From positions 704,001-768,000 of the forward strand of contig JACPJW010000001.1 of the NCBI GenBank assembly GCA_016187335.1: 64,000 nt of DNA, in the 5' to 3' direction. This document shows positions 12,284 through 48,789 of this stretch, piece by piece. Origin of the DNA: Candidatus Aenigmatarchaeota archaeon. Lineage in GTDB: Archaea; Aenigmatarchaeota; Aenigmatarchaeia; GW2011-AR5. Position 1 is the first letter of the stretch. Every line of letters starts with the position of its first letter. Both the position numbers and the translations under genes were made by a program. The notes under the pieces are model-generated. The model saw only the letters and a list, made by a program, of their open reading frames with translations. It made no database searches and had not been told where the DNA came from.

Positions 12284-12313
12284 CGTTTTGGTGAAACTTT
12301 TCTGAAAAGTTTC
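12284..12313 (-). repeat. Family-A hairpin repeat just downstream of tRNA-Lys
   Basis: GAAACTTTTCAGAAAAGTTTCACCAAAACG on the minus strand; consensus RAACTTTT-N3-4-AAAAGTTY-RATCAAAA. Confidence 0.8.
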
Positions 12314-12316
12314 TAG

Positions 12317-12658
12317 TGGGCCCGACGGGAAATTCGAAGCACGTTGCCACGACATGCTTATTCGAACCCGCGACAGGCGGCTATCTTTCAAGGAGAAGAA
12401 ACGGAACAGCTTGAAGCACTTCGTGCTTCGGTTTCCTTCCTCTCCTTTGAACCTCATTTCCTCATATTACCGAACGAATTCGGCTTCGGATCTTTTATCT
12501 TTTTGATCAAACTTTTTTCCAAAAAGTTTGCATGATAAAAGGCCGCTACTCTACCAGGTTTCTCGCAACCCCAGTCTTCCTGTAATATCTTCGCATGTTC
12601 TTTGGGACATGCAAAGACCTTTCTTACAAGAAAGGGATTTGCACTGAGCTACAGGCCC
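12317..12658 (-). tRNA. tRNA-Lys(UUU) with three introns: 15/16 (12559-12643), 37/38 (12383-12535), 59/60 (12331-12360)
   Basis: Removing the three segments leaves a 74-nt cloverleaf: acceptor GGGCCUG/CGGGCCC, anticodon arm GCGGC-CUUUUAA-GCCGC, UUCGAAU T-loop; BHB-like geometry at each junction. Confidence 0.9.
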
Positions 12659-12659
12659 G

Positions 12660-12879
12660 CGCCTTGGCCGGGATATTCGGAACTTTCCCTTTTCCTCGAA
12701 GAACGTTAGTTCTTCGGGATCTTGGAGAACTTTCGTTCTCCACAGATGATTGAACTTTTTGGAAAAGTTCATTCGAACCCGGGTCGTAGCCGTTCTATGA
12801 TTTTTCCGTTGACGCTTTTGCTCGCCAGCGGAAAAGGGTCATGACAGGGCTACATGCTAGACCGCTACACCACCAAGGC
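12660..12879 (-). tRNA. tRNA-Asp(GUC) with two introns: 37/38 (12793-12841), 59/60 (12674-12771)
   Basis: 73-nt mature cloverleaf, acceptor GCCUUGG/CCAAGGC, G73; strict BHB at 59/60 (UUCG/CGAA central helix). Confidence 0.92.
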
Positions 12880-12880
12880 A

Positions 12881-13150
12881 TTATCTCCACATTAGGTAGC
12901 TTTTCATGTCATCCGTTGGTACAGTAACAACAAAATCACAAGGCTTGCCAGCTATTCGCATCACATCGCCCTGCGCATCATTAATCCTTCCCAGGGTTTT
13001 TTCGTCAAGCTCATCCACAATAGCGTATACAATCAAATGTCCGTCCGATTCCTGCACCGAAGCATGCATGACCGTGTAAACATCTTTTAAGGCATCCCTG
13101 AAGGTATCGAAAATCCTTTCTGTTGGAACGTCTTGGATATTCACAGGCAT
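12881..13150 (-). CDS. Small hypothetical protein between 5S rRNA and tRNA-Asp
   Basis: 89-aa ORF with an AGGTGA Shine-Dalgarno; stop lies 1 nt before tRNA-Asp. Confidence 0.65.
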   Translation of the reverse strand: MPVNIQDVPTERIFDTFRDALKDVYTVMHASVQESDGHLIVYAIVDELDEKTLGRINDAQGDVMRIAGKPCDFVVTVPTDDMKSYLMWR

Positions 13151-13266
13151 ATGAGTTCACCTAAAGACTATCAGAAAGTCTCTCCTCTAAGTTTTGAAAA
13201 CCGTTGTAGAGAAATAAGTCTTATAACCATTCAAACCCTGCCGCGCGCCATCAATGACAAATATAA

Positions 13267-13382
13267 GGTCAGCAACGTCCTGGCGTTCACAGCTTTCGCC
13301 ATTACTTGCCATATCGCTGGAGAGCTTAACTTCCAGGTTCGGAATGGATCTGGGTGTGCCCTCTCCGCCTTGGTCGCCAACC
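13267..13382 (-). rRNA. rrf: 5S rRNA, not linked to 16S/23S in this window; ends approximate
   Basis: CCCAGATCCATTCCGAACCTGGAAGTTAAGCTC core; terminal helix GGTTGGCGAC/GTTGCTGACC. Confidence 0.92.
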
Positions 13383-13528
13383 ACATTACTATTCAAGGAT
13401 AAAGGATTTAAAGACTTTAAAAACCGTCAGGACGAAACAGGATTTTTCTGGGTAAAAGCCGAAACCCGCCTTCCGTTTTTCTTCAATTTTAAATATGTCC
13501 TTCGGCGTATTCTCTATTGCAATTTAAT

Positions 13529-13719
13529 CCCGCGATAGCTCAACGGTAGAGCGCCCGGCTGTAGCTTAGCACTGCAGAACAAAGCTGTGTTATGATTCAG
13601 CAGCCGCTCACTAGAAACCGGGAGGTTGCCGGTTCGAAAGACCCTTTTCTTTTGGAAAGAAAAGCGTCTACGGAAAAGAAAATATTAAGGAAAGGGGTCC
13701 GAAACTCCGGCTCGCGGGA
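13529..13719 (+). tRNA. tRNA-Tyr(GUA) with two introns: 37/38 (13565-13616), 59/60 (13639-13705)
   Basis: C1-G72 acceptor CCCGCGA/UCGCGGG, A73, anticodon arm CCCGG-CUGUAGA-CCGGG; strict BHB at 59/60. Confidence 0.92.
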
Positions 13720-13722
13720 TTT

Positions 13723-14559
13723 TTAAATTTTTATGAGAAGTTTTTTTCTACTACCGACTTCTACCCTTTCTCCGAACTTGTCCATGTTAGTTGCCAAAGT
13801 TATGCGCCTGTGCGGAAATGCGTGAGAAAAATAATCATATGCAGTTCTTATAGTTCTGCCCTCACAAACGTCCTCGTCAAAAATTAAGATTCTTCTTCCG
13901 TCCGTCTGTTCCTGCAAATAACCCAATTCATGCTTAAGAATCCGAGGTCGTCTATCCCGTAATTTATCCATAGATAGACGAACAACATAAAACGAACTGG
14001 CTGGAGCTCCAGCGTCACAGTAACGCAAAAATACATCCATTCCAGGAGCCGTGCCGCCGTGCGCCATTGTTATAAAAAGAACATCACGGTTCTTGAAATA
14101 ATCCATCATTTTTTCTGCTGTCGCTCTGGATCTTTCAGGCTTCATAGCGCTCCAGGTAGTCGTATCTTCCTGCTGTTTAACTTTTCTTTCCAAAAGCTGC
14201 GGACATTGGGATTCAATTTTTGAGCGGAAATCGTGTAGATGTTGAACACTCTGGGAATCTGATCCATAGACCGCCAATCCAAGATCGATTGCATTTCTAA
14301 CGAGATCCACATTTCCTCTCAAAGGGTATGATATCTTGAAATCCAATACAGCTCTTATAACCCTAGGGGCGTGAAGAGCAATTATAACCAGATCCTTGGT
14401 ATCTGGACGACTGTAACTACAAAGAGCTTCGAGTTCGCCTAAGACTTCGCGCAAATTACCGGAATACGATTGAAGATGTAGAAATTCTCTGAACGTTTGG
14501 GGCATTGTACCGGGCGGGCATTCGCCGGCAATTTTATCGAATAAGGAATGGTAGGGCAT
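13723..14559 (-). CDS. Hypothetical protein with a C-terminal type I phosphoribosyltransferase-like domain
   Basis: VLFITMAHGG and ILIFDEDVCEGRTI (PRPP-loop-like). Confidence 0.6.
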   Translation of the reverse strand: MPYHSLFDKIAGECPPGTMPQTFREFLHLQSYSGNLREVLGELEALCSYSRPDTKDLVIIALHAPRVIRAVLDFKISYPLRGNVDLVRNAIDLGLAVYGSDSQSVQHLHDFRSKIESQCPQLLERKVKQQEDTTTWSAMKPERSRATAEKMMDYFKNRDVLFITMAHGGTAPGMDVFLRYCDAGAPASSFYVVRLSMDKLRDRRPRILKHELGYLQEQTDGRRILIFDEDVCEGRTIRTAYDYFSHAFPHRRITLATNMDKFGERVEVGSRKKLLIKI

Positions 14560-14645
14560 TTAGTTTTAGAATATAATAAAAACTTTAAATTATTGTAATC
14601 TGCGAGGGATTTTAAGTACAATTTCTGACTGAAAATAAGAAATCG

Positions 14646-16091
14646 TTATGAACTATTCCCCTTTCCCATCAGCTTCTTGATATGCCCGTGAATCTTTTGG
14701 TGCAGCTGCTTTTCCTCGCCCTGCATTTCCAGCCCGACAGCCGGCGTGTTGGAAAAGTTCTCCGTTTCCTTGTTGTTGGCGGCAAATACAACGCTCGCCT
14801 GCGGCAGGTTTATTGTCCCGCTCAGCTCGACTACGGGGATTATCTTGTACGTCAGAACCCTCTCCTCGTTCGGCCGCAAGTTGCTTACGGCCCATTTCAG
14901 CTCGATGCCCGATTCGCTTTTTTTGCGCAAAGGCTTCGGTCCTTCCGTGTCTTTCATCTGGAATATTGTGGGGACGAAATCGTAAACTTCGGCGCTGTCC
15001 ACAGATTTTCCTGAATAATTCTTCACCTCAACGCCTACGGTGAATTCCTCGCCCTCGCGGATGTGCTTTTTCTGCAGTATGTACTTTGAAACGCGCAGCG
15101 TCCTGAACCTTGTCAGGTACAGCCATAATAGTCCGAAAATTACGATCAGCGTATAGAAGAGCGGACTGTAGTCAAGGGAGTACTTTATGCTTGCCAGCCC
15201 TCCCGGAGCCACCGGAGGCAGGGTCCATACGTAGGTGTCGCCTTCAGTCCTTTCTGGAGGATCGCCCTTGAAGAAGTTTGAATCGAACTTGGTTATCTTT
15301 TCCGTCAGCAGCAGCGGCTCTGAAACATCATTTCCAACGTTCTTGAAAAGGAACACCTTCTCTTTTTTCAGCAGGTTTATATTTGTCGTTGTCATGTCCT
15401 TGAGCACAGCTTTCCTTGCGACGACGAATTTTTCCGTCGTGTCGCTCAAAACCGCTTCAAGCTGCGTTACCTTTATGCTGATGCTGTAGTCGCCCGGCGG
15501 CGCGTTTTCCTTCAGCTGGAATGATTTTTCCAGCGTCTTCACGTCCTCGGGCTCAAGATTAAGCACGTCAGAGCTTTCGTATATCTTCCCTTCCGGCGAA
15601 TATGCTGATGTTTTCACGTTGATGTTCTGGACCTTCACGTCGCCGATGTTCCGGAGCGAGAACCTGACGCTGACAGTCCCGGAAGGGATCAGGTCTCCTG
15701 TCAGAAAAACGCCTTCTGTCTCGATGCCTTCGCTTTTGTACACAAAGGCGTACAAATCCGCCCTTTTCCTTTCCTTCGTGCCCCGCGATTCAACGTCGAA
15801 CGATATTTTGTGCAGCCCCTGGGGCACAGAAGATGACGGGGAAAAGAATACCGTGAAATTCTCGCTGCCGCCTCTGCCTACGGAAACGATGGTCTTGTCC
15901 GTGGTGACCCACGTCTTCGCGTCAGCGGGGCTTACCAGGAAGGAATCGTCGGAATCGCTGCTTATCTTCACATGCGTCTGCCTCATGCCGCTTACAGGGA
16001 CCCTTATGGTGTCCTGCGTGTACTCAAGGGTGTATGCAAAAGCGGCGCCGGCAAAAAGGAGCATGACGAATAATGCAAGAAGCCTTTTCAT
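14646..16091 (-). CDS. Secreted/membrane protein with Ig-like (CARDB-type) beta domains, a TM helix and a cytoplasmic beta domain
   Basis: Signal peptide MKRLLALFVMLLFAGAAFA, RFSLRNIGDV, PPGDYSISIKV, TM LFYTLIVIFGLLWLYL. Confidence 0.7.
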   Translation of the reverse strand: MKRLLALFVMLLFAGAAFAYTLEYTQDTIRVPVSGMRQTHVKISSDSDDSFLVSPADAKTWVTTDKTIVSVGRGGSENFTVFFSPSSSVPQGLHKISFDVESRGTKERKRADLYAFVYKSEGIETEGVFLTGDLIPSGTVSVRFSLRNIGDVKVQNINVKTSAYSPEGKIYESSDVLNLEPEDVKTLEKSFQLKENAPPGDYSISIKVTQLEAVLSDTTEKFVVARKAVLKDMTTTNINLLKKEKVFLFKNVGNDVSEPLLLTEKITKFDSNFFKGDPPERTEGDTYVWTLPPVAPGGLASIKYSLDYSPLFYTLIVIFGLLWLYLTRFRTLRVSKYILQKKHIREGEEFTVGVEVKNYSGKSVDSAEVYDFVPTIFQMKDTEGPKPLRKKSESGIELKWAVSNLRPNEERVLTYKIIPVVELSGTINLPQASVVFAANNKETENFSNTPAVGLEMQGEEKQLHQKIHGHIKKLMGKGNSS

Positions 16092-16214
16092 GAATAACAT
16101 ATTCCAGAAGCCCGTATATAAATGTTGCAACAGCGTGATTCAGGCGTAATTTTACGAATGAAAAATTATTCCGCGGTCCGGTACTTATAAAGTTTTGAAT
16201 TATTTCTCCTGATA

Positions 16215-16694
16215 ATGAGACGCGTAATTTCAGTTGCTTTGATTGCAGGAGCTTCCATGGCCCTCACATTTACCTCTTTGGCTGCTTCACAACTGTCTTA
16301 TCGGTCAAAAACCTTCGCCGCGGCAGCGCACGACGGTGCAAAAGATGCAAAGACTTACATTGAAGTCGGTCTTGATGAGCTGATAAGAAACCTGGGAAAA
16401 TATCGCGACCAGCGTGTTTCAACGGTAGGATATGTCGGTAGTTTCGGAAAAGGAGTGACTGGCCGATACTACCATATGTATCCGCGTGAGGTCGGAGAAT
16501 TTTATTTTGGTACTGATGGTCTGGTCATTCTGGAAGACCCAGCGACCTCGAATATAGGAGAACTTATTAAAAAATCCGGCGGCTCAAGAAAATTCAAAGT
16601 CAAAGGCGTAGTCAAGGCTGATGAAGACGGCGGGGTAAGCTATTTTCTGAACCTGCATAAGGCCGAGGTTATCCGGAAAAAGCGCCGACCTTAG
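16215..16694 (+). CDS. Hypothetical exported protein, possibly OB-fold
   Basis: Hydrophobic N-terminus; YRDQRVSTVGYV...FKVKGVV pattern. Confidence 0.55.
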   Translation: MRRVISVALIAGASMALTFTSLAASQLSYRSKTFAAAAHDGAKDAKTYIEVGLDELIRNLGKYRDQRVSTVGYVGSFGKGVTGRYYHMYPREVGEFYFGTDGLVILEDPATSNIGELIKKSGGSRKFKVKGVVKADEDGGVSYFLNLHKAEVIRKKRRP

Positions 16695-17356
16695 AACAAA
16701 AACCTCACCATCGCCGCGAAGATGAGCATGCTGCCTAGGTCGGCGACAGCAGTTGTCAGGGGTATCAGGAAGTTGTTCGGGTCTTCTTTCTTCCTGTAGA
16801 TGTAGAATCCCGCTGTAACCGAAATGACAAATATAACCGTCACGAGAATTAGGGTGCATATCAGCGAAACAAAAAGTATCTTTACCAGAAGCGCATAGCT
16901 CACGGCAAATCCCTTCAAATAAGATACTGCCGACGACATGGCAGATATGTAAACAGCCGAGAGCGTACCTATCTTCAGGACGTCGCTGAAAAGGTCGCGC
17001 ATGTTGTCGGATTTCCACCATTTATTTGTTATCTGGCCCAGGTAAAGCGCAGTGGTGAAGCGCGACGATATTATTGCGCCGTAGTTGCCTATCATGCCGT
17101 TCATTGCCGGGAGCATTATCAGCAGCGGCATTAATGTAACAAGGCTGGATTGAATTGATTCCAGATGTATGCCGCCTATTGTGCTTATGATGGCCGTTAA
17201 AAGTATTATTTTCAGGCTCTCCTTTACAATAACGACATGCACGTCCTTCCCCGGGCCGTATTCCTTCATGTAGAACATCGTGCGGTGATGCAGCCCGTGC
17301 TTCCTGTGCAGCCTCTTTATGTGACTCGTTACGGGCTTTGATTTGCGGAATTTCAT
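16691..17356 (-). CDS. MgtE integral-membrane-domain divalent cation transporter
   Basis: PAMNGMIGNYGAIISSRFTTALYLG and DPNNFLIPLTTAVADL. Confidence 0.88.
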   Translation of the reverse strand: MKFRKSKPVTSHIKRLHRKHGLHHRTMFYMKEYGPGKDVHVVIVKESLKIILLTAIISTIGGIHLESIQSSLVTLMPLLIMLPAMNGMIGNYGAIISSRFTTALYLGQITNKWWKSDNMRDLFSDVLKIGTLSAVYISAMSSAVSYLKGFAVSYALLVKILFVSLICTLILVTVIFVISVTAGFYIYRKKEDPNNFLIPLTTAVADLGSMLIFAAMVRFLF

Positions 17357-17886
17357 AAGATCACTATTGCAATCAGAATGCTGGCAACGCTCGCGATGTC
17401 TCCTATGGTTGTTATGTAAGGCCCCATTATGTTGTTCGGGTCATGCCCGTGCCTGAAAAGCCAGAAATTAGCCATGATGGTAAGCGGGATTTCAATAATG
17501 TTCGAAAGCAGGCCAGCGACAATGGCTACATAGATTATCTTTGCGTTGGTGATTCCAAAGAAATAATAGGAGAAAGCGAAAGAAACCAGCCCAAGCACGA
17601 GGCTGACAACAAAGGCAAGGATGACAGCGGCAATAACGTTCTCGCGCAGAAATCGGTTGTTTCTTGCCTGCGGTTTTGTAATCTTCAGGAACAATCCCGA
17701 GCTGAGCCGCGCGGACATGCTTCCAGAAATGGAGCCGCGCATCTCAAGAAATCCAGGAAGCAGTATGAAAAGGCCGGGAACGAGCATTATCTGGTTTGTA
17801 GCGGAAGCAAGCATGGTTCCGGCAACGATGCCGCCTGTCAGCGAGACAAGTTCTCCGTAGAAAATCTCGCGGAAGTCCTTGTGCAT
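17353..17886 (-). CDS. MgtE integral-membrane-domain transporter, partner paralog
   Basis: LPGFLEMRGSISGSMSARLSSGL and DPNNIMGPYITTIGDI. Confidence 0.88.
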   Translation of the reverse strand: MHKDFREIFYGELVSLTGGIVAGTMLASATNQIMLVPGLFILLPGFLEMRGSISGSMSARLSSGLFLKITKPQARNNRFLRENVIAAVILAFVVSLVLGLVSFAFSYYFFGITNAKIIYVAIVAGLLSNIIEIPLTIMANFWLFRHGHDPNNIMGPYITTIGDIASVASILIAIVIL

Positions 17887-17957
17887 GAGCGGCCTGCCCG
17901 CACTTTTTTGCATAAAATATTATTGGTAAAAAGCGGGATATAAAGAAATTTAATCCT

Positions 17958-18434
17958 TTGTACTTTACTATATGCATGACTCAAAGTTTTACGGAATTAG
18001 AAAACACAATGGCAGTATCGGAAATACTTCAAAACCAGCCTATAGATTTTCTCGAACAGTTCGGAGAAGAACTGAGAAAAAACGGCGAATATTCAATAGT
18101 TGGATTAGGGTTGCCTTATGCGTCAAGATTGATAGATGGTTCTATCGAATACCTATGCCCAGTAGTTACTAAAGGAAAAACTCTTGGTGAATATTCAATA
18201 AAGCCTTCAGACCCATCTGACCCTTTGTCAGAATTGCTCGGGAAAAGAGAGGGCATTTATTATATTGGCAAACATCCTATCGCCGCTCGGAACGACGTTG
18301 AAGAGGTATTTTTATCGTATCATAGAGACTTAGACGATTCATCTAATTCCAGACGCGGAGACAAATGGCACGAAATAATTTTCCCGAATATTATTGATGA
18401 CAAGGCTCATGTGCAGACAAAGACTACTTCTTGA
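17958..18434 (+). CDS. Hypothetical protein (real start may be 18009)
   Basis: 158-aa ORF filling the gap; no motif recognised. Confidence 0.5.
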   Translation: MYFTICMTQSFTELENTMAVSEILQNQPIDFLEQFGEELRKNGEYSIVGLGLPYASRLIDGSIEYLCPVVTKGKTLGEYSIKPSDPSDPLSELLGKREGIYYIGKHPIAARNDVEEVFLSYHRDLDDSSNSRRGDKWHEIIFPNIIDDKAHVQTKTTS

Positions 18435-18882
18435 TATCCGCAATAGTGGCATTCACCGCTTTCCTTATTGCGTGCGGCGATATTTTTATCAGATGCTGCT
18501 CGGAGCCGCCGCCGGCATAGCATAAGTCCATTTTCATGACGTCGCTGTCTATTATCGTTTTCAGCCCGGTGCCCACAGGCGGCACGGCACCGGCTTTGTA
18601 GCCTGTCAGCTTCAAAACTTCCTCGGGCGACGCAGTGTTTATTGTTTCGCCGGTGATTTTTTCTATTTTCTCGTGGGAAACCTTGCTGCCGCCCTTTACG
18701 ATGCCTATCACGCCGGAACCGCTCCTGGAAATGAAAACAACGCTCTTGACAATGCGGTCTATGTCGATGCCCATCACGCCGGCAGCCATGCGCGCGGTTT
18801 TCGTTTCGCCGGGCATCTCCATGATTTCAGCGGGAATCTTGTTTTTTGCCAGAAAATCCTGCAGGTCAAGGTGGTCTTTCAT
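18424..18882 (-). CDS. ybaK: YbaK/EbsC family aminoacyl-tRNA deacylase
   Basis: RIVKSVVF, TGYKAGAVPPVG, YAGGGS. Confidence 0.92.
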   Translation of the reverse strand: MKDHLDLQDFLAKNKIPAEIMEMPGETKTARMAAGVMGIDIDRIVKSVVFISRSGSGVIGIVKGGSKVSHEKIEKITGETINTASPEEVLKLTGYKAGAVPPVGTGLKTIIDSDVMKMDLCYAGGGSEQHLIKISPHAIRKAVNATIADIKK

Positions 18883-18959
18883 ATATAATAAGTAAACCCA
18901 GCATATGTTTTAATCCTTGGAGAACGCAGTCAAAAATTAAATTAAAAAATAAAAAATCT

Positions 18960-19181: not shown

Positions 19182-19196
19182 TTATGGCACCTCCAT

Positions 19197-19226
19197 TGCA
19201 ACTTTTTAGAAAAAAGTTGCATCAAA
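19197..19226 (+). repeat. Family-A hairpin repeat, intergenic
   Basis: TGCAACTTTTTAGAAAAAGTTGCATCAAAA. Confidence 0.8.
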
Positions 19227-19337
19227 AAATCAGACTTTTCAGAAAACAGCTTCCTGTTGCTGAAAAGTTCCTGAATTTATTTGTTTTTGGGGGTTTATAA
19301 AGAAAAATAAGAATCTTTCTCAAGATTATTACCTTAC

Positions 19338-19540
19338 GCCACGCTAGCTCAGTAAGCCCTTTTCTTGGAAAGAAAAGCGCTTGCGGAAAAAGAACATATT
19401 AGGAAAAGGGCTGGAGAATGGTAGAGCGTTAGTGAAATGACACCGCTAAACCTTGGTAAGGAACTTTTCAAAAAAGTTCCATCAAAACGGAAAAACCAAC
19501 AAAGAGGTAAAGGCCCCGAGTTCGATCCTCGGGCGTGGCT
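19338..19540 (+). tRNA. tRNA-Thr(GGU) with three introns: 16/17 (19354-19418), 28/29 (19431-19449), 37/38 (19459-19504)
   Basis: 73-nt mature cloverleaf, acceptor GCCACGC/GCGUGGC, U73, anticodon arm UUACC-UUGGUAA-GGUAA; AGCG/CGCU central helix at 28/29. Confidence 0.88.
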
Positions 19541-19543
19541 TTT

Positions 19544-21002: not shown

Positions 21003-21035
21003 GGCACCACTTTCTATCAACACTAGCCTCTTTTG

Positions 21036-21080
21036 TTTTTGATCAAACTTTCTTTTGATCAAACTTTTCAGAAAAGTTTG
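21036..21080 (-). repeat. Family-A hairpin repeat with a partial tandem copy, between pyrH and the metallopeptidase
   Basis: TTTTTGATCAAACTTTCTTTTGATCAAACTTTTCAGAAAAGTTTG on the plus strand. Confidence 0.8.
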
Positions 21081-24757: not shown

Positions 24758-24763
24758 CGATCC

Positions 24764-24791
24764 TTTTGATCAGACTTTTGGGAAAGGTTTG
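24764..24791 (-). repeat. Family-A hairpin repeat, intergenic, degenerate
   Basis: TTTTGATCAGACTTTTGGGAAAGGTTTG on the plus strand. Confidence 0.7.
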
Positions 24792-33502: not shown

Positions 33503-34774
33503 CTATCGTCTCTTTGCCAGCTTCCGGAGTTCTTCCCGCCGCCTCACCCTGAGCAGTTCCTCGTTCGACATCGCCGCCATCTTCATGAGCGTAGGAAGGG
33601 CTCCTTGGATTTCCTTGACTTGCTTCAGCGTAGATGCCATGTCAGAGAACTCCAGGGAGAAGTTGCAGTTCTCACAGATCCTCGCCTCGGGACTGTTGAA
33701 CGCCTTGCAGTTCCAGCATAACAGAGGCTTTTCCAGCTCCTTCCTTATCTCATCCTCCGGCCGGAGCAGCCCATGTCGTTTGAGGATGGCCTCCTCGACG
33801 TCACGGTTGCTCATGTGCAGGTAGACCTCGAAGTGCTTACTGGTCGGAGTATGCCCCGTGATCCTCTTTACGATCTGATCCGGGTACTGCTGCACCAGGT
33901 GAGTCGTCCTGGAGTGACGCAGGATGTAAGGGTAAACCTTCTTCATAACGCCCGCGCGGCGTGCTATACCCTTCAGCATGCGGTTGAGTGCAGCCACGCC
34001 GATAATCTCGTCGTGCCGTGGATTCGCCTTCTGACGCAGCCATAGCAGCGCGTCAGGGTTCGCTCTGAGTGGGTGGATGTTTATCCATGCCCGGAGGTAC
34101 GTCGCAGCGTTGATTATGCGGATGGGCCGCGGCCTCGTCTTGCTGTGCTGGATGTGGACAACAGCACCGTACGGGTCAAAGGTCACATTCCCGATTCTCA
34201 ACGTCAGCAGCTCAGAAGGACGCGCAGCTGTCTCGTAAGCCACACTGATGAGAGCTTTGTCTCTCGTGTTCGTCGCCGTGGCGATCAGGCGTTCAACCTC
34301 ATCTACATCAAGGGTCTGACCTTCTTCCACCCTCGACTTTTTCGCATTGCTGGGAACCGACGTGCGGAGCCACTCGAAATCCCTTGGATTATACTTGCTT
34401 CCCTTGAGCCACTTGACGAAGACTTTCAGCCCAGCCCTCATGTCCGCCCTGTACCATTCGGAACAGAGAGCTGGCTTCTCATCGGCACGGCTGGCTGCGC
34501 CATGCGGTGGCTCCCTTTTCGTGAGGTCGTTCAGCCGGCCTACAAGGCGCCGAAAGTCCCGAACGCTGTACTTGTCGACGTCCTTCCCGAGCAAAGGGCC
34601 AATCCGAAGAAAGAGAAAGGCGTACTTCCTCATTCTGGCCGCCGAAACGCGCGCCGACATGTCATCGAGGAAATCCAGAATGAGCCGGCGGTTTCTTCGG
34701 GGCAGGTCGGACTCCTGAATCTCGCGCCTCCTCTTCTCGAATTCCTCCTTGTGCTTGTAGATCTGGACCTCCAT
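33503..34774 (-). CDS. Tyrosine recombinase/integrase with a C-terminal Zn ribbon
   Basis: TAARPSELL (R), SKT (K), YILRHSR, ITGH, EVYLH (Y), CWNC...CENC; start MEVQIY with a GAGG Shine-Dalgarno. Confidence 0.92.
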   Translation of the reverse strand: MEVQIYKHKEEFEKRRREIQESDLPRRNRRLILDFLDDMSARVSAARMRKYAFLFLRIGPLLGKDVDKYSVRDFRRLVGRLNDLTKREPPHGAASRADEKPALCSEWYRADMRAGLKVFVKWLKGSKYNPRDFEWLRTSVPSNAKKSRVEEGQTLDVDEVERLIATATNTRDKALISVAYETAARPSELLTLRIGNVTFDPYGAVVHIQHSKTRPRPIRIINAATYLRAWINIHPLRANPDALLWLRQKANPRHDEIIGVAALNRMLKGIARRAGVMKKVYPYILRHSRTTHLVQQYPDQIVKRITGHTPTSKHFEVYLHMSNRDVEEAILKRHGLLRPEDEIRKELEKPLLCWNCKAFNSPEARICENCNFSLEFSDMASTLKQVKEIQGALPTLMKMAAMSNEELLRVRRREELRKLAKRR

Positions 34775-34830
34775 ATTCCCTCTTATTGCCCGCCCAATAT
34801 TTAAGGGTTCGGCATCGAACAGTTTTCCAA

Positions 34831-34991
34831 TGCCGAAGGCGAGAATCGAACTCGCGACCCCCACATTTCTCTTCAACGCGCATGCCGCTCAGAACTCATA
34901 ATTTTCAATTTCTTTGGTCTTTCTTTGGTCAAACTTTCTTTTCAAGAAAGTTTGTTATGAGTGTGGTGCTCTACCACTGAGCCACTTCGGC
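34831..34991 (-). tRNA. tRNA-Met(CAU), elongator-type (or Ile2), with a 37/38 intron (34867-34955)
   Basis: G1-C72 acceptor GCCGAAG/CUUCGGC, anticodon arm CCACA-CUCAUAA-UGUGG; the intron contains a family-A hairpin. Confidence 0.9.
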
Positions 34992-35041
34992 TTTCCGTTT
35001 TGATCAAACTTTTTTGAAAAGTTTGACTGAGCCACTTCGGC
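34992..35041 (-). repeat. Exact duplicate of the first 16 nt of tRNA-Met (35026-35041) followed by a family-A hairpin (34992-35025)
   Basis: ACTGAGCCACTTCGGC occurs at 34976-34991 and 35026-35041. Confidence 0.9.
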
Positions 35042-35100
35042 ACAAAGAGCAGAACCTGACGGTTCTCTCTCTTGACTCTCATTCCCTTATTATTTCTTGG

Positions 35101-35122
35101 TGCAACTTTTTGGAAAAGTTGC
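35101..35122. repeat. Family-A hairpin repeat, intergenic
   Basis: TGCAACTTTTTGGAAAAGTTGC. Confidence 0.75.
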
Positions 35123-37147: not shown

Positions 37148-37392
37148 TGAAAGGTGGATATTGGCGGATGAATCATTTTATTAGACACATGAGGTCCTGA
37201 TGCGACGACGTATAGTTAAACGTCTTTTTTTTGCATCCATTGTTGTCGTGTTCATCCGCCAATCCATCGAAGGCCAGTATTTTTTATGACCTTCATGATT
37301 CGCCCCGAATTCGCTGGACGAACCGAGACTTCATTTCCCGGCAAAGGAAAAATGAAGTAAAGGGAGAAAAAAATATCCTCCCGAAAATTTTG

Positions 37393-37420
37393 TTTTGATG
37401 AAACTTTTTGGAAAAGTTTC
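37393..37420 (-). repeat. Family-A hairpin repeat directly after the ftsZ stop
   Basis: TTTTGATGAAACTTTTTGGAAAAGTTTC on the plus strand. Confidence 0.8.
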
Positions 37421-41430: not shown

Positions 41431-41551
41431 GCCACCATAGCTCAATCCGAACTTTTCCGAAAAGTTCGATCAAAAGGGAAAGTTTGGGGGAAATTGGCAG
41501 AGCATCTGTTTTGTAAACAGAAGGTTGGGGGTTCAAGTCCCTCTGGTGGCT
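41431..41551 (+). tRNA. tRNA-Thr(UGU) with a D-loop intron at 15/16 (41446-41493)
   Basis: 73-nt mature cloverleaf, acceptor GCCACCA/UGGUGGC, U73, anticodon arm UCUGU-UUUGUAA-ACAGA; the intron is mostly a family-A hairpin. Confidence 0.92.
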
Positions 41552-42936: not shown

Positions 42937-42964
42937 CATTACCGCAAGAAGGCTCGCTTAGAGG

Positions 42965-43228
42965 TTATTTCTTCCTCTTCACTATCTTCCTCTGCAAAAT
43001 CCGCTTCGCCTTCTCAAGCTCGCGGCGGCGTTCCACAGGCAATTTTTTGCCTGCGCGATTGATGAACATCTGTACCATGCGGATGGCGGAGCCGATGCCT
43101 TTGGGGCTGACCTTCCTTGATGCCATTATCCTTGCGATGCTTTCTGCTTTTTTCGTGAAAGTGCCGGGCGGCGGGTAGGTTGAAACCGTTTTAATCTTGT
43201 GGAACCAGAGCTTTTTTCCTCTCGGCAT
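42965..43228 (-). CDS. DUF3175-like small basic protein
   Basis: SAIRMVQMFINRAGKKL...RRRELEKAK. Confidence 0.75.
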   Translation of the reverse strand: MPRGKKLWFHKIKTVSTYPPPGTFTKKAESIARIMASRKVSPKGIGSAIRMVQMFINRAGKKLPVERRRELEKAKRILQRKIVKRKK

Positions 43229-43257
43229 GCTATCACTTGTAATTTATTCAATAAAAA

Positions 43258-43434
43258 TCATGCCGGCATGCTCTTCCCTAGAGCCCATGAAAGCACGAAA
43301 AGTATCAGGAAAACGATGAACAGTATTTTCGCTATGTCTATGGCAACTCCGGCCACTGTTGTGAATCCCATAATGGCTGCTATAATTGCCAGTATAAGGA
43401 ACGCCAGTGTCCATGATATGAGCCCTTTTGACAT
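43258..43434 (-). CDS. DUF1328 / UPF0391 small membrane protein
   Basis: WTLAFLILAIIAAIMGFTTVAGVAIDIAKILF. Confidence 0.88.
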   Translation of the reverse strand: MSKGLISWTLAFLILAIIAAIMGFTTVAGVAIDIAKILFIVFLILFVLSWALGKSMPA

Positions 43435-43626
43435 CCTGCCACCAAATAAAAAGAAACCCGCAATAGAAATAAAAAGCATCCTTGCTGCAGCAAAAATTAC
43501 TTTCTGTCCCTAAAGTTGTAAAAAATTCCATTTTTTTGCCTTTAAGAACCTTTTGGCTCCTCAGAAACTCTTGGAATGCTTTTGTGATTTTTTCCAATCA
43601 ATCGGAATTTTCATCAGGTGATTTGA

Positions 43627-44619
43627 ATGAAATACAATGCGATTATTTTTGCGCTCCTATCGGCCTTGCTTGTAGCCGGATGCGTGCAGCAGGCAGGCGC
43701 GGCGAAAGGATCTGTATTCTTTACAATGGCCGACGCGGCGGCGGACATGGGCGCGGTGAGCAGCGTTGTAGTCACTGTCGACAGCGTCAGGGCGCATAGC
43801 AACACCCAGGGATGGATAACTGTTTCTTCGGAAACGCGCACGTACGATCTGATGCAGCTGAAGGCCCAGAGCAACCAGGTTTTGCTCGCGGAAGCGCAGC
43901 TTGATCCCGGAACTTACCAGCAGGTGCGCCTGGATGTTTCAAAGGTTGTGGTTACGGACGCCGGCGGCGAACATGAAGCCAGGCTGCCTTCAGGCGAGCT
44001 GAAGATTGTTGGGCAGCTCATTGTGGAAGCCAACAAGACGTCCTCGGTCACCTTCGACTTCATAGCTGACGAGTCGCTGCATGTCACGGGAAACGGCCAG
44101 TATGTTTTCGCCCCGGTGGTGCAGCTGACCACGCGGCACAGTGCCGACGTTGATGTAAGGAACACGAACAACGTGCAGATTCGCAGCGGCACTGTAGATA
44201 CCGATACCAAGGTGGGAATGGACATCAACGGAAACGTCGGCGTGGGCGTAAAGATTGACCCTAACGTCGTTATCAATGTCGGTGCGGACGGAAAAGTCAT
44301 CATCGGCGTCGGCGCTCCGCCGCCTGCTCCGAAGCCAAAGCTTGTCATTAACATAACCGTCGAAGCGGACAACAACACGCTTTACCCTGTCAGCGCTGAA
44401 GTGAAAAAAGATGCGACGGTGCGCCTTACGTTCAGGGTGCGCGAGGGCACAAACTCGACGGGACTTGAATTCAGGAGCGAGAAGTTCACGACAGGCCCTG
44501 TGCTGCCGGGTGCCAGCGCAACCGTGGAATTCACCGCGGACAAATCGTTCAGTTATTCAACCTACTTCGGCGGAAGCAGCGTGAAGAGAGCCGAAGGCTG
44601 GATTATTGCATCCTTATAG
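43627..44619 (+). CDS. Lipoprotein with a DUF4382-like domain and a C-terminal cupredoxin-like beta domain
   Basis: LLVAGC lipobox; DLMQLK, LDPGTYQQVRLDVS, RLPSGELKI, TFDFIADES. Confidence 0.75.
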   Translation: MKYNAIIFALLSALLVAGCVQQAGAAKGSVFFTMADAAADMGAVSSVVVTVDSVRAHSNTQGWITVSSETRTYDLMQLKAQSNQVLLAEAQLDPGTYQQVRLDVSKVVVTDAGGEHEARLPSGELKIVGQLIVEANKTSSVTFDFIADESLHVTGNGQYVFAPVVQLTTRHSADVDVRNTNNVQIRSGTVDTDTKVGMDINGNVGVGVKIDPNVVINVGADGKVIIGVGAPPPAPKPKLVINITVEADNNTLYPVSAEVKKDATVRLTFRVREGTNSTGLEFRSEKFTTGPVLPGASATVEFTADKSFSYSTYFGGSSVKRAEGWIIASL

Positions 44620-44761
44620 CTTCTATAGCATGTGACATAAATAATCAAACATATTATGATGTCACTGCTATATGCAGAAGACATTAAATTGTACGAAAAC
44701 TAATGTCTTCTACTATATTGTCAATTGATTTCCAACAGATAAATTTTATCGGGCGATTCGA

Positions 44762-45178
44762 ATGAAATACGAAAATGCCATCATTTTCGCGCTTATTCCG
44801 GCGCTGTTCATAGCGGGATGCGTGCAGCAGTCGCAGCCGAAAGGATTAGGAGACTACACCCCGCCTACGGGCACGCCTTCCCTGGAAATGCTGTCGCCGA
44901 AAGACGGCGATGTCATAAACGGCTCGGCTGTTGCGATAAAGGTGAACGTCACGAATTTCCGGCTTGCCGACATTGCTGCAAACAGGGCAAACAGGGATAA
45001 CGAAGGTCACATACATTACTATCTGGACGACAGGGAGCAGAGGGTTCCCTACACGATAGTGTCGTTCACAAACGTCCCGGCCGGCGAACATTCCATCAGG
45101 ATTGAGCTGCACAACAACGACCATTCGCCGCTGTTCCCGCCAGTGACGGTTTCCATCAGGATAAGAACGACGGGCTGA
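44762..45178 (+). CDS. Lipoprotein with an Ig-like domain carrying an HxH motif
   Basis: Signal peptide nearly identical to the upstream gene (MKY.NAIIFAL...AGCVQQ); GHIHYYLD, GEHSIRIELHNNDH. Confidence 0.7.
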   Translation: MKYENAIIFALIPALFIAGCVQQSQPKGLGDYTPPTGTPSLEMLSPKDGDVINGSAVAIKVNVTNFRLADIAANRANRDNEGHIHYYLDDREQRVPYTIVSFTNVPAGEHSIRIELHNNDHSPLFPPVTVSIRIRTTG

Positions 45179-45191
45179 AGCCCGTAGATAT

Positions 45192-46067
45192 TTATCTTTC
45201 TCCGGCCCACTCGTGCAGCTTCTCCGCCAGTTCTTCCTTTTCCTCGGCGCCCGCCAGCTTCTCCGCCAAAGTTTTGAGAGAAAGCTTCTTCACCTTGAGG
45301 AATTTCAGAAGCTTTGCGGGCGTGAACTTCTTTTTCTGCGGCGAGCGCGGCGGCAGCATGGACTTGAGCGTTATATAATAATAAATCGCCGCGGAGACAT
45401 CCCTGGCTGTTGCGCCTTTGGCTTTCTTTTTCACTCCTTCCGCAAATCCTTCGGCCTGCTTCATGAAGTAGGCATCGTCCTCGTAGAACTGGTAATAAGG
45501 GCCTATGTCTTCATTGACGAACTTCTTCGTCTGCCATGACGGCGGGCAGAAATCGTAGCCGAAGCCGACGGAGTGCAGCCAGAAGATTATCTTTGTGTAT
45601 CTTATGTTCGGGACGTCGGCGTCTTTCACGAGCCCTTCTATGAATTCCCATGTCTTTTCCTTTGTGCCGAGGGTTTTTTCCAGGGTTTCCGGCGTTATGC
45701 CGTTCTTTTCAAAGAAGCGCGCGCTGCCTTTTATGGAAGCGCTTATGCGGAACATCTCCTTTTTCAGCTCGCGCAGCATCTCAAGGGTTTCTTTGTCCCT
45801 TATCCTGTACATCCGCTCGTCCAGAATCTTTTCAACAGCTTCCCTCCAGTCCTCGCCGCTTGTTTTCCTGACGTAATCCATGCCCAGCTGCGGCTTGAGG
45901 ATGCTTAATACAAGATTTATTTCTGCCTCGCTTCTCTTGCCGCCCATGAAGACGATGAAAAGGAACTTGTCCCACAGCTCTCCCGTGCTTTTCAACTTTT
46001 CAGGCCGGTCCTTCATGGCCAGCCTTACCAGGTCCAGGAAGCCTTCAGGCATCTCGTTATCGGGCAT
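45192..46067 (-). CDS. Hypothetical protein, distantly like HhH-GPD/Ogg DNA glycosylases
   Basis: PNIRYTKIIFWLHSVGFG resembles the GIGYKEASHFLRNVG helix-hairpin-helix of archaeal Ogg. Confidence 0.45.
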   Translation of the reverse strand: MPDNEMPEGFLDLVRLAMKDRPEKLKSTGELWDKFLFIVFMGGKRSEAEINLVLSILKPQLGMDYVRKTSGEDWREAVEKILDERMYRIRDKETLEMLRELKKEMFRISASIKGSARFFEKNGITPETLEKTLGTKEKTWEFIEGLVKDADVPNIRYTKIIFWLHSVGFGYDFCPPSWQTKKFVNEDIGPYYQFYEDDAYFMKQAEGFAEGVKKKAKGATARDVSAAIYYYITLKSMLPPRSPQKKKFTPAKLLKFLKVKKLSLKTLAEKLAGAEEKEELAEKLHEWAGER

Positions 46068-46133
46068 TGTTTCACGTTCCAGATCTCTAAACTGTTGTAA
46101 AGACTTAAAAACGTGAATCATGATAGTTTAAGG

Positions 46134-46766
46134 ATGCTGGATGTAATCAACATATTCCTTCATCTTGACCAGTACTTCGGCTCGCTGATAAACGAGTACA
46201 GCATATGGATTTATCTTATCCTTTTCGTGACGGTCTTCCTGGAAACAGGAATTATCGTTACGCCGTTCCTCCCGGGAGACAGCCTGATTTTTCTCGCAGG
46301 CGCTTTCGCGGCTGCCGGCAGGCTTGATATGGCGGTACTTTTTGTTGTTTTTGCAGCTGCAGCGATTTTGGGCGACACAGTGAATTACTGGATAGGGCAT
46401 CACGTTGGTCGCAGGGTTCTGCACAAAAAAGTCCGCTTCGTTAGAAAGGAATACGTAGAAAGGACTTACGATTTCTACGAGAAGCACGGCGGGAAAACAA
46501 TAGTAGCCGCGAGGTTCATCCCGATAATACGCACGTTCGCGCCCTTCGTGGCAGGCATCGCAAGGATGAATTACAGCAGATTTTTGTTCTTCAACGTAAC
46601 CGGCGCTGTTCTGTGGGTCGCGTCGTTCCTTGCCCTGGGATACTATTTCGGCAGCATACCTTTAGTCAAGGAAAACCTTGGACTGGCGATAATTGCGATT
46701 ATTCTGGTGACGGTTCTTTATTCTTTGTTTGAACTTTACAGGAGCAGGAAGAAAAGCGGAAAATAA
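46134..46766 (+). CDS. dedA: DedA (VTT-domain) membrane protein
   Basis: FLETG..PFLPGDSL, GDTVNYWIG, ARFIPIIRTFAPFVAG. Confidence 0.95.
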   Translation: MLDVINIFLHLDQYFGSLINEYSIWIYLILFVTVFLETGIIVTPFLPGDSLIFLAGAFAAAGRLDMAVLFVVFAAAAILGDTVNYWIGHHVGRRVLHKKVRFVRKEYVERTYDFYEKHGGKTIVAARFIPIIRTFAPFVAGIARMNYSRFLFFNVTGAVLWVASFLALGYYFGSIPLVKENLGLAIIAIILVTVLYSLFELYRSRKKSGK

Positions 46767-46988
46767 TACAGTAATTTCAGAAAGAAATCCGCCGGATTGT
46801 TTCCTGTTGTGAAAAACCATTGCCTAAAGGCAGTGGCATCTGAAAGATGCCATTGATATTATAAACAATGTTTTTTACGCTCAAAAACCATAGGTCTTTG
46901 GCGTCTCAAAGAAGCTTTGCTTCTTTGCAGACATCTAACATTCCACCTTATAATACCACCATCTAAAGATAGGTGGAATGTTCAGATT

Positions 46989-47564
46989 TCAAGCCAGTCC
47001 CGATACGAATCCTGTGAAGACCAGCGCCACGATTATCAGGGCGAGGAGCAGGACCGGCAGGAGCCACGTAAGAGCGGCGCGGCCGGTGGAGTATTTATGG
47101 ACTTCCCTCAGGCCTATGGTAAGCACGTAAAGGCTGTACAGGTTCGCGGCAGCTGATAGAATCCCGCCGACGGCGGGTATCGGTCCCAGCAAGACGCCCA
47201 GCACCCCGAAAGGGGCGTTGACAAGAGCGATAATGTGCGCGTGCTGCAGTAAATTCCCCTTTCCCTCGAGAAAATGGGCGAAGACATAGAGCACTGATGC
47301 GGATATCGCCCAGAACAGGACAAAAACAGCGGGTATCATCGCAAGCGAGATCATGTAGAAGCTGGCTGCCCCTGTAAGCGCCTTCAGCTCCAGCATTCCT
47401 TGCGTCGGAACGAGCACGCTTATGATGGCAGCAAGAACGCCGGCGAACGCGACCTGGGCAAGGGATTCAAGAATATTTCTTTTTTTGCTTTCCTTTTTCG
47501 CAGTCTTGCCGGGGTTTGTCAGCATCCCGAGCCATTTCCTGAAAGTATCGGTGAAAAAATTCAT
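46989..47564 (-). CDS. Yip1-domain membrane protein
   Basis: LTNPGKT start, five TM helices, GLREVHKYSTGRA. Confidence 0.8.
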   Translation of the reverse strand: MNFFTDTFRKWLGMLTNPGKTAKKESKKRNILESLAQVAFAGVLAAIISVLVPTQGMLELKALTGAASFYMISLAMIPAVFVLFWAISASVLYVFAHFLEGKGNLLQHAHIIALVNAPFGVLGVLLGPIPAVGGILSAAANLYSLYVLTIGLREVHKYSTGRAALTWLLPVLLLALIIVALVFTGFVSGLA

Positions 47565-47609
47565 GGCTATCTTCCTTTTTCACTTTGTATTTCTTTCTTT
47601 AAGAAGTTT

Positions 47610-48032
47610 TCAGACGTCCAAAATCACTCTGGCAATCCATTTCTTTTCTTTTTTCAATTCAAAGTTGTGGTAAGTCACGGCCTTAACGTCCACAAGCAGC
47701 TCATGCTTTTCCATGTCTAATTTCTCTCCGGATACCTTTGCCGTTAATACAAGGTTCTTTTCGTCTATTTTTACGGAAAATCTGCTCAGCAGAAGCTGTT
47801 TGGCGTCCTTCAGGAAAACTATTTCCTGCAAAAAATTGAACAGCAGCGATTCCAAAGAATCGCTCCTCAGCTTTATTGTTTTCGTCACCTTCGGCTTCAC
47901 TTTCTTCAGATCCCTGACCATCGTGTTCGTGACAGCCAGGCCCGCTGACTCAAAAAGCTCTTTCAATGTCCCGCCCGAGGCTTCAAAGGCCACGTCAGCT
48001 ATGGCAACGTCCTTGAAGAATCTGTAGGGCAT
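47610..48032 (-). CDS. Archease (RtcB activator)
   Basis: YRFFKDVAIADVAFEASG, LFESAG, VKAVTYHNF, C-terminal ILDV. Confidence 0.92.
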   Translation of the reverse strand: MPYRFFKDVAIADVAFEASGGTLKELFESAGLAVTNTMVRDLKKVKPKVTKTIKLRSDSLESLLFNFLQEIVFLKDAKQLLLSRFSVKIDEKNLVLTAKVSGEKLDMEKHELLVDVKAVTYHNFELKKEKKWIARVILDV

Positions 48033-48036
48033 TTTT

Positions 48037-48789
48037 TCACCGTTTTGATCCTTTTGATACAACTTTTTGGAAAAGTTGTTTTCCGTTCAGGTAAGCTTTC
48101 CTTTTGCTTTCAGGAAATTTTTCTATCGCATACCTGAGCGTCGTCCTAGGTATTTTCTTGTAGTGCTTTCTTAAAAACTGCTCGAGCAAGCGTTCATCCT
48201 TCTTTCCCAGCTCGCGAAGCATCCACCCAACTGCTTTCTGGATGAGGTCGTGCTTGTCTTTAAGAAGGATTTTTGCGAGCTTTATCGTATCATCATACTG
48301 GTTGTTTCTCAGGAAGTAAAATGTTGCAATGATGGCCATTCTCCTTTCCCATATATTGCCTGATGCCGCAAGCTTGTACAAAACCGATCTGTCTTCGTTC
48401 AGCAGGTATCTGCCAAGAATCTTGTCGGCGCTCAGGTCAACAATGTCCCAGTTGTTGATGTATTTTGTCGATTTAAGGTAAAAATCAAGGATCTCCTTTT
48501 TGCGTTTAACGTCGCCTTCTTTTTCAGCTTTCTCATAATTATGGACCAGAAGCAGAACGGCGCACAAGCGCTCTTCATGTATTTTTGATTTCAGCAATGC
48601 TTCCGCTTCCTTTAGCGGCAGCGTTTTATGTTTTATTGCAACTTTCCTCGTTTCCGGCACTGGCACGCCTAAAAATACATCGCCTTCCCCGTATTGCCCG
48701 GGGCCTGTCTTGAAAAATCTCGCGGATATCCTGGATTTTTCTGCGCTTCCGAGATTCGCGAGTTCCGCTCTAACAGCTGTTAATGACAT
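48037..48789 (-). CDS. alkD: DNA alkylation repair protein (AlkD family); C-terminal tail encoded by a family-A repeat
   Basis: FFKTGPGQYGEGD, HEERL, NNWDIVD, WERRMAI, IQKAVGWMLRE, RTTLRYAIE. Confidence 0.92.
   Translation of the reverse strand: MSLTAVRAELANLGSAEKSRISARFFKTGPGQYGEGDVFLGVPVPETRKVAIKHKTLPLKEAEALLKSKIHEERLCAVLLLVHNYEKAEKEGDVKRKKEILDFYLKSTKYINNWDIVDLSADKILGRYLLNEDRSVLYKLAASGNIWERRMAIIATFYFLRNNQYDDTIKLAKILLKDKHDLIQKAVGWMLRELGKKDERLLEQFLRKHYKKIPRTTLRYAIEKFPESKRKAYLNGKQLFQKVVSKGSKR
48052..48079 (-). repeat. Family-A hairpin repeat inside the 3' end of alkD
   Basis: TTTTGATACAACTTTTTGGAAAAGTTGT on the plus strand, translated as KQLFQKVVSK. Confidence 0.8.

Follow-up and report, generated by a model that had tools for sequence, protein, structure and literature searches.

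How does one short repeat come to lie within tRNA introns, just past stop codons and inside the reading frame of a protein tail? The question is raised by a 64,000-nucleotide (nt) stretch of DNA (C2:704001-768000, hereafter the window; coordinates without a contig prefix refer to it) from an Aenigmatarchaeota genome, which carries dispersed copies of a hairpin-forming palindrome, here called family A. Its source is a groundwater archaeon of the DPANN lineage, with a 91%-complete genome of 1.01 Mb and 47% G+C on two contigs (G000), which we compared with a half-complete genome of the same genus that is 70–80% identical to it in genes (G001), a genome of another genus (G005) and further relatives. 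The preliminary description of the window had listed at least 13 copies of an oriented palindrome with its tail on one side, five of them in tRNA introns, one making up most of its intron, several after stop codons or tRNA ends and one in the 3′ end of an alkD gene. All of this was borne out by our analysis: the 13 copies are present, with nine exact cores in the window, while the other listed places hold variants, one degenerate copy and one half copy. We consider it probable, if by no means certain, that family A is a copy-and-paste hairpin module of about 33 nt, which is spliced as a bulge-helix-bulge (BHB) intron in stable RNAs and is otherwise parked in dispensable transcribed sequence.

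The unit is sharply defined. The exact core, AACTTTT-N3/4-AAAAGTT, occurs nine times in the window against an expectation of 0.00 from 100 dinucleotide shuffles, and 73 times in the whole genome; allowing up to one mismatch per arm raises the latter count to 93, compared with 8–17 in third-order Markov simulations. A wider family of the form NN-AACTTT-(1–24 nt)-AAAGTT-NN comprises 139 loci (about four in simulations), 116 of which bear the one-sided tail. The full unit is 33 nt long, a multiple of three, and consists of a 9-bp stem (NN-AACTTTT paired with AAAAGTT-N′N′), a 3-nt loop (mostly CAG, CAA, CCA, AGA or CCG) and, on one side of the hairpin only, the tail A-T/C-C-A-A-A-A-(C/G)-G-G-A-A, whose base counts over 73 copies are A71 T65 C71 A72 A66 A64 A64, followed by (C/G) G G A A. 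The sequence ahead of the hairpin displays a weak C-(A/T)3 preference and nothing more. The core itself is a perfect 17-bp palindrome, and both of the two outer stem pairs are complementary in 71 of the 73 exact copies, using nine pair types. In an alignment of ten window copies, 97.8% of the cells are paired and eleven are changed on both sides, a degree of covariation reached by none of 500 shuffles; imperfect copies are too few for the asymmetry between G·U and A·C mismatches to inform on RNA-level selection. Variants of the unit include one with the stem lengthened to 10 bp, another with a GCTRCTCC loop and the tail ATCAAAAGAG, a long form that continues past the hairpin with ATCATYTG and two more hairpins, which also covary, and a cassette with a CC(N) loop, an AAAAGGG tail and an additional third arm. 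Since the last of these is found in T-, D- and anticodon loops alike, the subfamilies appear to propagate as units. A search of the literature for the motif strings and for Aenigmarchaeota tRNA introns recovered no description of the motif, and a search with Rfam at permissive thresholds gave chance-level matches only (E above 0.4).

The copies in stable RNAs argue for a spliced module. At least 12 copies, in the T-, D- and anticodon loops of tRNAs and in 16S and 23S rRNA, sit in canonical BHB (hBHBh′) motifs with three to four of four central-helix pairs, 3-nt bulges and an outer helix of 4–5 bp. The 5′ half of these motifs runs from the outer helix through the 4-bp central helix and a 3-nt bulge (usually AA|N) into the 5′ arm of the palindrome; the 3′ half comprises the loop, the 3′ arm, the tail, the third arm, 4 nt complementary to the exon, a 3-nt bulge and the outer helix. 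Being a repeat of the 3′ arm, the third arm can form 10–12 bp with the 5′ arm, including the CC of the loop with GG. Thus, helix h′ is built by the 5′ arm and the third arm, and not by the palindrome’s own pairing. RNAfold prefers this helix in nine of ten contexts, with energies of −20 to −30 kcal/mol versus −6 to −9 kcal/mol for the plain hairpin, and leaves the 3′ arm and tail in a 17–19-nt terminal loop. The arrangement is exemplified by the 98-nt T-loop (59/60) BHB intron of tRNA-Asp (12674..12771, minus strand), with an element copy at 12739-12771: its hairpin, TGAAC..GTTCA (12751-12771), is joined by a long tail (ATCATCTG) with two further hairpins and by the third arm GGGAAAGTTC, and CGAA is paired to exon UUCG between the 3-nt bulges AA|T and TA|T. 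The central helix has four of four and the outer helix five of five pairs, in the layout CCGGG|UUCG|AA/U|GAACUUUUCC ... GGGAAAGUUC|CGAA|UA/U|CCCGG. Four further T-loop introns have the element with its third arm, and element-bearing introns also occur in anticodon loops (C2:176194 and C2:254344) and D-loops (C2:56845 and the window). The D-loop intron in the window, that of tRNA-Thr(UGU) (41446..41493, plus strand), is a mere 48 nt long and nearly all element (copy 41448-41480), with the hairpin at 41448-41468, the tail and the third arm GGGAAAGTTTGG; in its minimum free energy fold the 5′ arm again pairs with the third arm.

The rRNA genes allow filled and empty sites to be set beside each other. 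At one 16S site, at least 14 relatives have no intron and read ...GCAAT|G...; G000 carries GGAAC...GUUCGCAAAC here, G005 the same module, and two other relatives (G016 and G033) other hairpin modules. The predicted junction, UUGCAA|UGGG, is identical to the sequence of the intron-less relatives, just as the predicted T-loop junctions of two tRNAs are identical to the intact T-loops in G001. Between G000 and G005, several positions of the 16S intron change together: stem position 2 is G in the former and A in the latter, the 3′ arm and the third arm have C versus T, and the exon pairing is UUGC:GCAA versus UCGC:GCGG. Genes for the enzymes expected of such a pathway are present, namely the splicing endonuclease EndA (PF01974 match at C2:410532-410810) and the RNA ligase RtcB (PF01139 match at C2:765179-766423). 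Judging from the sequences, the predicted folds and the intron-less relatives, EndA and RtcB of the host would excise the element introns.

A practical consequence is that most tRNA genes of this organism are too interrupted for detection by the Rfam tRNA model, which returned 12 tRNAs above threshold and about nine partial matches in the 91%-complete genome. The element introns explain why standard tools recover only about one-third of its tRNAs. The 16S gene (G000:C2:239679-242953) likewise spans about 3.3 kb for a 1478-position model, and hence has about 1.8 kb of introns at several sites.

The placement of family A follows transcription. The strand defined by the tail is minus in 62 copies and plus in 17 (genes: 612 versus 399), and all of the approximately 20 copies within or beside tRNA and rRNA genes with a readable gene direction are co-oriented with the gene. 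Among the copies within 30 nt of a stop codon, 25 are sense and three antisense; 20 begin −3 to +7 nt from a co-oriented stop codon, and in at least nine cases the first stem bases themselves form it (TAA-AC, TGA-AC, t-GA-AAC). Some begin 2–3 nt past the discriminator base of a tRNA, such as the one at 12281-12313 in the window and examples in G001 and a further relative (G024), and others lie 9–20 nt upstream of start codons, many within apparent operons. The rRNA operon has copies in the 16S gene (C2:242582), in a stretch matching the 23S model (C2:209934), approximately 80–95 nt past the 16S 3′ end (C2:239584) and approximately 300 nt upstream of the 23S 5′ end (C2:214336). Spacer-less direct tandems of 27–29 nt are also seen (e.g., C2:76478/76507 and C2:803329/803356). 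The stop-adjacent and other intergenic copies have no third arm. We considered whether stop-adjacent copies could be mRNA introns, as those at C2:177747, C2:579859 and 37402 gave four of four central-helix pairs in a permissive BHB scan, and rejected this candidate since the yield is at chance level (about 2% per candidate helix). At C2:579790-579880, a copy next to a stop codon could pair over 13 bp with sequence inside the following open reading frame (ORF), 43 nt downstream, and this helix is flanked by a 4/4 central helix and 3-nt bulges; if real, splicing there would fuse two ORFs, although chance could account for as many hits of this kind.

A minority of the copies are translated. In the AlkD-like protein of 250 residues, the DNA_alkylation domain extends to residue 225, and the element copy at 48047..48079 (minus strand) encodes the 13 C-terminal residues (QLFQKVVSKGSKR); after this copy come a second tail, the stop codon and then the next ATG. 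The ortholog in G005 lacks this 13-residue tail and stops two residues past the end of homology. Similarly, a copy of 33 nt lies in-frame in the gene for a multicopper oxidase, where it encodes SNFSEKLHQNG within a linker seven residues longer than in the best PDB matches, and by their coordinates two other copies fall in the extreme 3′ ends of the genes for glutamate dehydrogenase (C2:661098) and ribosomal protein L4 (C1:20380). Such translated copies are a route by which tiny repeats can remodel protein C-termini in a streamlined DPANN genome.

Copies also come and go, as occupancy differs between the congeneric genomes: the family is dynamic, its members turning over between G000 and G001. 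The copy at 37388..37420 (minus strand; 37402 above), directly after a TGA stop codon, is missing from the orthologous spacer of G001, while the copies at loci L024 and L029 of G001 have no counterpart in G000; the two genomes have the sites C2:426691/L027 and C2:256657/L021 in common. The tRNAs at C2:412009 and C2:431605 have element-built T-loop introns in G000, whereas in G001 their T-loops are intact and the element is found in the trailer. In an orthologous tRNA-Arg the module occupies the D-loop in G000 versus the anticodon loop in G001. Behind one tRNA, a plain hairpin in G000 corresponds to the series 5′ arm-loop-3′ arm-tail-third arm in G001; thus, the 3′ arm plus tail behaves as an indel between direct repeats. 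Eight copies compared with contigs of four DNA runs displayed no presence/absence variant. In community contigs from four DNA runs, the tRNA-Met exons of other members are interrupted by introns of 18–39 nt instead of the 107-nt one. The gain of tRNA and rRNA introns in archaea is an open question, and here a single repeat takes two forms, being both free intergenic DNA and the main constituent of canonical BHB introns in many locations. With recent gains to be seen in the comparison of G000 with G001 and at the 16S site, where most relatives have no intron, the origin of introns becomes testable.

These observations can be brought together in a model wherein the module would become fixed only in the sense orientation and in transcribed but dispensable sequence. 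In the genes of stable RNAs it would be carried as an intron cassette, with the third arm and 5′ arm building h′ and four more nucleotides pairing with the exon, such that EndA and RtcB could remove the insertion and render it harmless. In mRNA regions, the module without a third arm would persist immediately behind stop codons or the 3′ ends of tRNAs, in the short spacers that precede start codons and, occasionally, in-frame in protein tails or linkers; in these positions it may supply a stop codon or a GGA element resembling a ribosome-binding site.

Several points weigh against this copy-and-paste model. Mobility is deduced from the presence or absence of copies between genomes at 70–80% identity, and the direction of the events, gain rather than loss, is likewise our reading of these comparisons. 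In intergenic DNA, the comparison of empty and filled sites yielded no clean junction. No target-site duplication was found at the copies, the apparent direct repeats at the T-loop and 16S sites being palindromic exon hexamers (TTCGAA, TTGCAA) that pair in the central helix, and the 91%-complete genome has no match to PF01797, TnpB or DDE_Tnp_1 (other transposase families were not searched); a search of G000 for a reverse transcriptase detected none. The introns retain the 3′ arm and tail even though these are dispensable for splicing. The outermost hairpin pair of the 16S intron, which lies outside h′, is G-C in G000 and T-A in G005, which could stem from a constraint acting on the plain hairpin or from the separate insertion of two different variants at the site. 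The gene calls against which placement was read come from a rough ORF model. Finally, the core is identical across archaeal phyla, for which a selected function is at least as good an explanation as selfish spread.

The last point emerges from the wider distribution of the element. A 26-nt pattern of the motif was recovered in 15 of 41 relatives searched (none with the backwards control), with 58 exact matches in G000, 13 in the half-complete G001 and one to six elsewhere. Among the 26 copies inspected in other genera of the order, 21 belong to tRNA or rRNA loci, namely 17 in tRNA introns, three in tRNA trailers and one in a 16S intron. A cross-phylum scan with one genome per species listed at least 118 motif-bearing contigs; at least 113 of these are archaeal, and one among those listed carries the name Aenigmatarchaeota. 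The carriers listed include Methanosarcinales, ANME-1, Methanobrevibacter, Methanocaldococcus, Thermoplasmatales and Halobacteria, as well as Micrarchaeota, Woesearchaeota, Nanoarchaeota, Iainarchaeota, Pacearchaeota, Altiarchaeota, Hydrothermarchaeota and others; Methanobrevibacter and Methanosarcinales offer cultivable representatives. Among the matches listed, complementarity of the outer pairs holds for 121 of 127 hits, a T-arm is nearby in only about one-eighth, and the loops are lineage-specific. Such an invariant core suggests recognition by some conserved factor.

The foremost alternative, which we regard as possible though improbable, is that hairpin and tail together serve as a functional signal in RNA, conserved throughout the Archaea, i.e., a protein- or nuclease-binding or processing site kept by selection, which might mark discarded RNA, stabilize 3′ ends or time splicing via competition between the 3′ arm and the third arm. 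Beyond the invariant core with its complementary outer pairs, this would account for the orientation strictly in the sense of transcription, the retention by G000 and G001 alike of a hairpin, albeit of differing form, directly behind one and the same tRNA 3′ end, the coordinated changes in the 5′ arm, 3′ arm and third arm of the 16S intron between G000 and G005, and the display of the 3′ arm and tail in the terminal loop of the introns. However, most sites flanking mRNAs differ in occupancy between the congeneric genomes, and most relatives make do with one to six copies compared with the 58 exact matches in G000. Moreover, the tandem arrays and the half, nested and in-protein copies resemble insertion debris. 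Nor does any gene family co-occur with the motif: clustering of the ORFs from the 118 loci listed, spread over many phyla, found none that recurs beside it. The largest cluster covers 10 loci (for example, an NrdD protein with an intein) at no fixed position relative to the motif; its re-checked members matched only the NrdD intein region, and the other clusters are housekeeping genes.

A bolder variant would combine recognition with movement. Here, the hairpin plus tail would be the recognition module for an archaeon-wide movement of introns driven by host enzymes, in which the excised and circularized BHB intron, or a DNA copy of it, is re-inserted after ‘AA’ in exposed loops and gene ends, with the core kept by a conserved nuclease, ligase or polymerase partner. 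We hold this to be a long shot; if true, it would constitute the long-sought arrival route of archaeal tRNA and rRNA introns.

We assign still less probability to a transcription terminator, as suggested in the preliminary description, or another 3′-end signal for mRNAs and tRNAs. This reading draws on the copies around stop codons and just past tRNA 3′ ends, on a variant following the 16S 3′ end and on the palindrome providing a T4 run on both strands. Against it, the hairpin is followed by AUCAAAA, an A-rich tract and not a U-tract, its stem is A/U-rich rather than G+C-rich, and many copies lie before start codons in apparent operons. Most tellingly, sense-oriented copies lie within about 20 tRNA and rRNA genes that need read-through; an efficient terminator inside these essential genes would be lethal, making the role unlikely. 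It is slightly more doubtful yet that the copies are double-stranded DNA sites, either operators of a dimeric regulator or promoter cores (B recognition element/TATA) centered on the loop for leaderless mRNAs. The perfect 17-bp palindrome would suit such a site, as would about seven copies with an ATG 15–20 nt past the hairpin, which places the loop 26–28 nt upstream of a leaderless start. Yet, covarying outer pairs would be unnecessary in DNA, the loops are often G+C-rich (CAG, CCG, CCA) unlike a TATA box, canonical TATA-like boxes occur elsewhere in the same spacers, and the distances to start codons are broadly spread, with further copies in introns and protein tails.

The preliminary description had also proposed a repetitive extragenic palindrome (REP)-like element that seeds introns and is spread by an HUH-type TnpA(REP). 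Its tie to intron gain has held up, given the intact T-loops of G001 and the mostly empty 16S site, whereas the strict REP analogy has not. Like bacterial REPs and the mosaic elements and doublets derived from them (BIMEs and REPINs; PMC3116915, PMC2817692), family A is a short, abundant palindrome with an asymmetric flank, found mostly outside genes, at gene ends and in transcribed spacers, and in mosaic clusters with other small repeats. Mobilization of a REP or REPIN as single-stranded DNA by a RAYT (Y1 HUH) transposase is nevertheless largely refuted: PF01797 has no match in the 91%-complete genome although the control search was positive in six reference genomes, no TnpB was found in G000, there is no GTAG/CGTC-type head, the arrays are direct tandems with no inverted doublets (REPINs), the A/U-rich stem differs from the G+C-rich one of REPs, the 62-versus-17 orientation follows transcription, and the motif sits in introns and in-frame in genes and spans many phyla, whereas REPs are species-specific. 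Three other candidates were rejected: a miniature inverted-repeat transposable element, for want of flanking direct repeats (save a 16-nt duplication at tRNA-Met) and of DDE_Tnp_1 or TnpB (other transposase families were not searched); a CRISPR repeat, whose hairpin and 8-nt handle look alike but whose spacers are missing from copies that are solitary or in spacer-less tandems; and a kink-turn or C/D-box, as UGAUGA...CUGA is limited to some of the copies and lies on the strand opposite to that of the tRNAs.

Among known systems, the palindromic elements of Rickettsia and the palindromic coding repeats of Methanocaldococcus jannaschii are small palindromes that reportedly occur in-frame in protein genes and in RNA genes. 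The former are 100–150 nt in length. Neither is known to have a recognizable transposase or to form spliceable BHB introns. Family A resembles them in its insertion in-frame and in RNA genes, its in-frame copies being a minority. A closer parallel comes from the transposed BHB introns of the Thermoproteales, in which a sequence common to different tRNAs and positions, with close relatives differing, was taken to indicate gain by copying (Fujishima et al. 2010, as summarized in PMC4090602). The two share introns at several tRNA positions in BHB motifs at non-canonical sites (59/60, D-loop), one cassette being found here in T-, D- and anticodon loops with occupancy differing between G000 and G001. 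Family A is set apart by its defined 33-nt hairpin-plus-tail unit, its presence outside introns (at stops and in tRNA trailers, rRNA spacers and protein tails) and in rRNA introns, its spread over many archaeal phyla and its DPANN host. Heavily interrupted tRNA genes missed by standard tools, with repeated intron gains at BHB-competent sites, are likewise a feature of Asgard tRNA introns (bioRxiv 10.64898/2026.10.13.758758); in contrast to that motif-free census, a specific repeat family here links the introns to intergenic DNA.

The remaining copies of the window fall into the same categories of sites. Two are associated with tRNA-Lys: a GAAAC..GTTTC copy with the tail ACCAAAACGGAA (12281..12313, minus strand) starts 3 nt past the tRNA 3′ end, in the trailer and upstream of an RNA polymerase operon, while a variant with a 10-bp stem and ATCAAAAAG (12496..12530, minus strand) is within the 37/38 intron of tRNA-Lys(UUU). 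The gene for tRNA-Thr(GGU) is preceded by a co-oriented 10-bp-stem variant (GCAACTTTTT..AAAAAGTTGC with ATCAAAAAATCA; 19198..19232, plus strand) and has a GGAAC..GTTCC copy with ATCAAAACGGAA (19460..19492, plus strand) in its anticodon-loop intron. The site that had been listed at 21036 is a half copy (arm plus tail) adjoining a full copy at 21048-21080; together they form an intergenic unit (21027..21080, minus strand) with the extra arm and tail GAAAGTTTG ATCAAAAAC, nested among other hairpin repeats. The degenerate copy (24759..24791, minus strand), with two mispaired stem positions, immediately follows a TGA stop and is separated from the next ATG by 15 nt. Three minus-strand copies cluster at tRNA-Met: an extended-stem variant (CAAACTTTCTT-GAAA-AGAAAGTTTG with ACCAAAG; 34918..34954) at the start of the 107-nt 37/38 intron, one (34993..35025) between a 16-nt duplicate of the tRNA-Met 5′ end (GCCGAAGTGGCTCAGT) and the full gene, and one with the weaker tail ACCAAGAAATAA (35090..35122) upstream of the locus. 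The 16-nt duplicate is the only clear direct repeat flanking any family-A copy, and the genome’s only gene of the Phage_integrase family (a tyrosine recombinase) is directly downstream of tRNA-Met (33809-35041).

Some further features accompany the family without being part of it. In G000, a second short module, AAAGCG-TCTA/TTCA/TGCA-CGGAAA, is often found directly 3′ of the tail, and in Methanosarcinales, ANME-1 and Methanomicrobiales GCTTCGCRG takes the second place behind the tail. As such second modules, seen genome-wide and at loci L078, L081, L099, L107 and L120-L137, occur behind the tail in several phyla, composite units rather than the hairpin alone appear to be common across phyla. 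The 26-nt pattern is also present in 68 IMG/VR contigs (L213-L280) of 18–40% G+C, many labelled as giant-virus metagenome-assembled genomes, sometimes in 29–38-nt tandem arrays; with the outer pairs complementary in only 33 of 88 hits, these may represent an unrelated low-complexity palindrome or a distant relative. At gathering threshold, Rfam recognized only 5S rRNA and one tRNA in the window and had no match for a block of about 70 nt within 37250-37330 (CGCCCCGAATTCGCTGGACGAACCGAGACTTCATTT...GAAGGAAAAATGAAG), which is about 95% identical between G000 and G001 in an otherwise diverged spacer and is probably a small structured RNA or tRNA fragment. Lastly, the T-loop of tRNA-Lys (12317-12400) holds an intron that has the same BHB design, UUCG|AAU|...|CGAA|UUU|CCCG, but no family-A module; thus, the 59/60 site serves more than one intron type.

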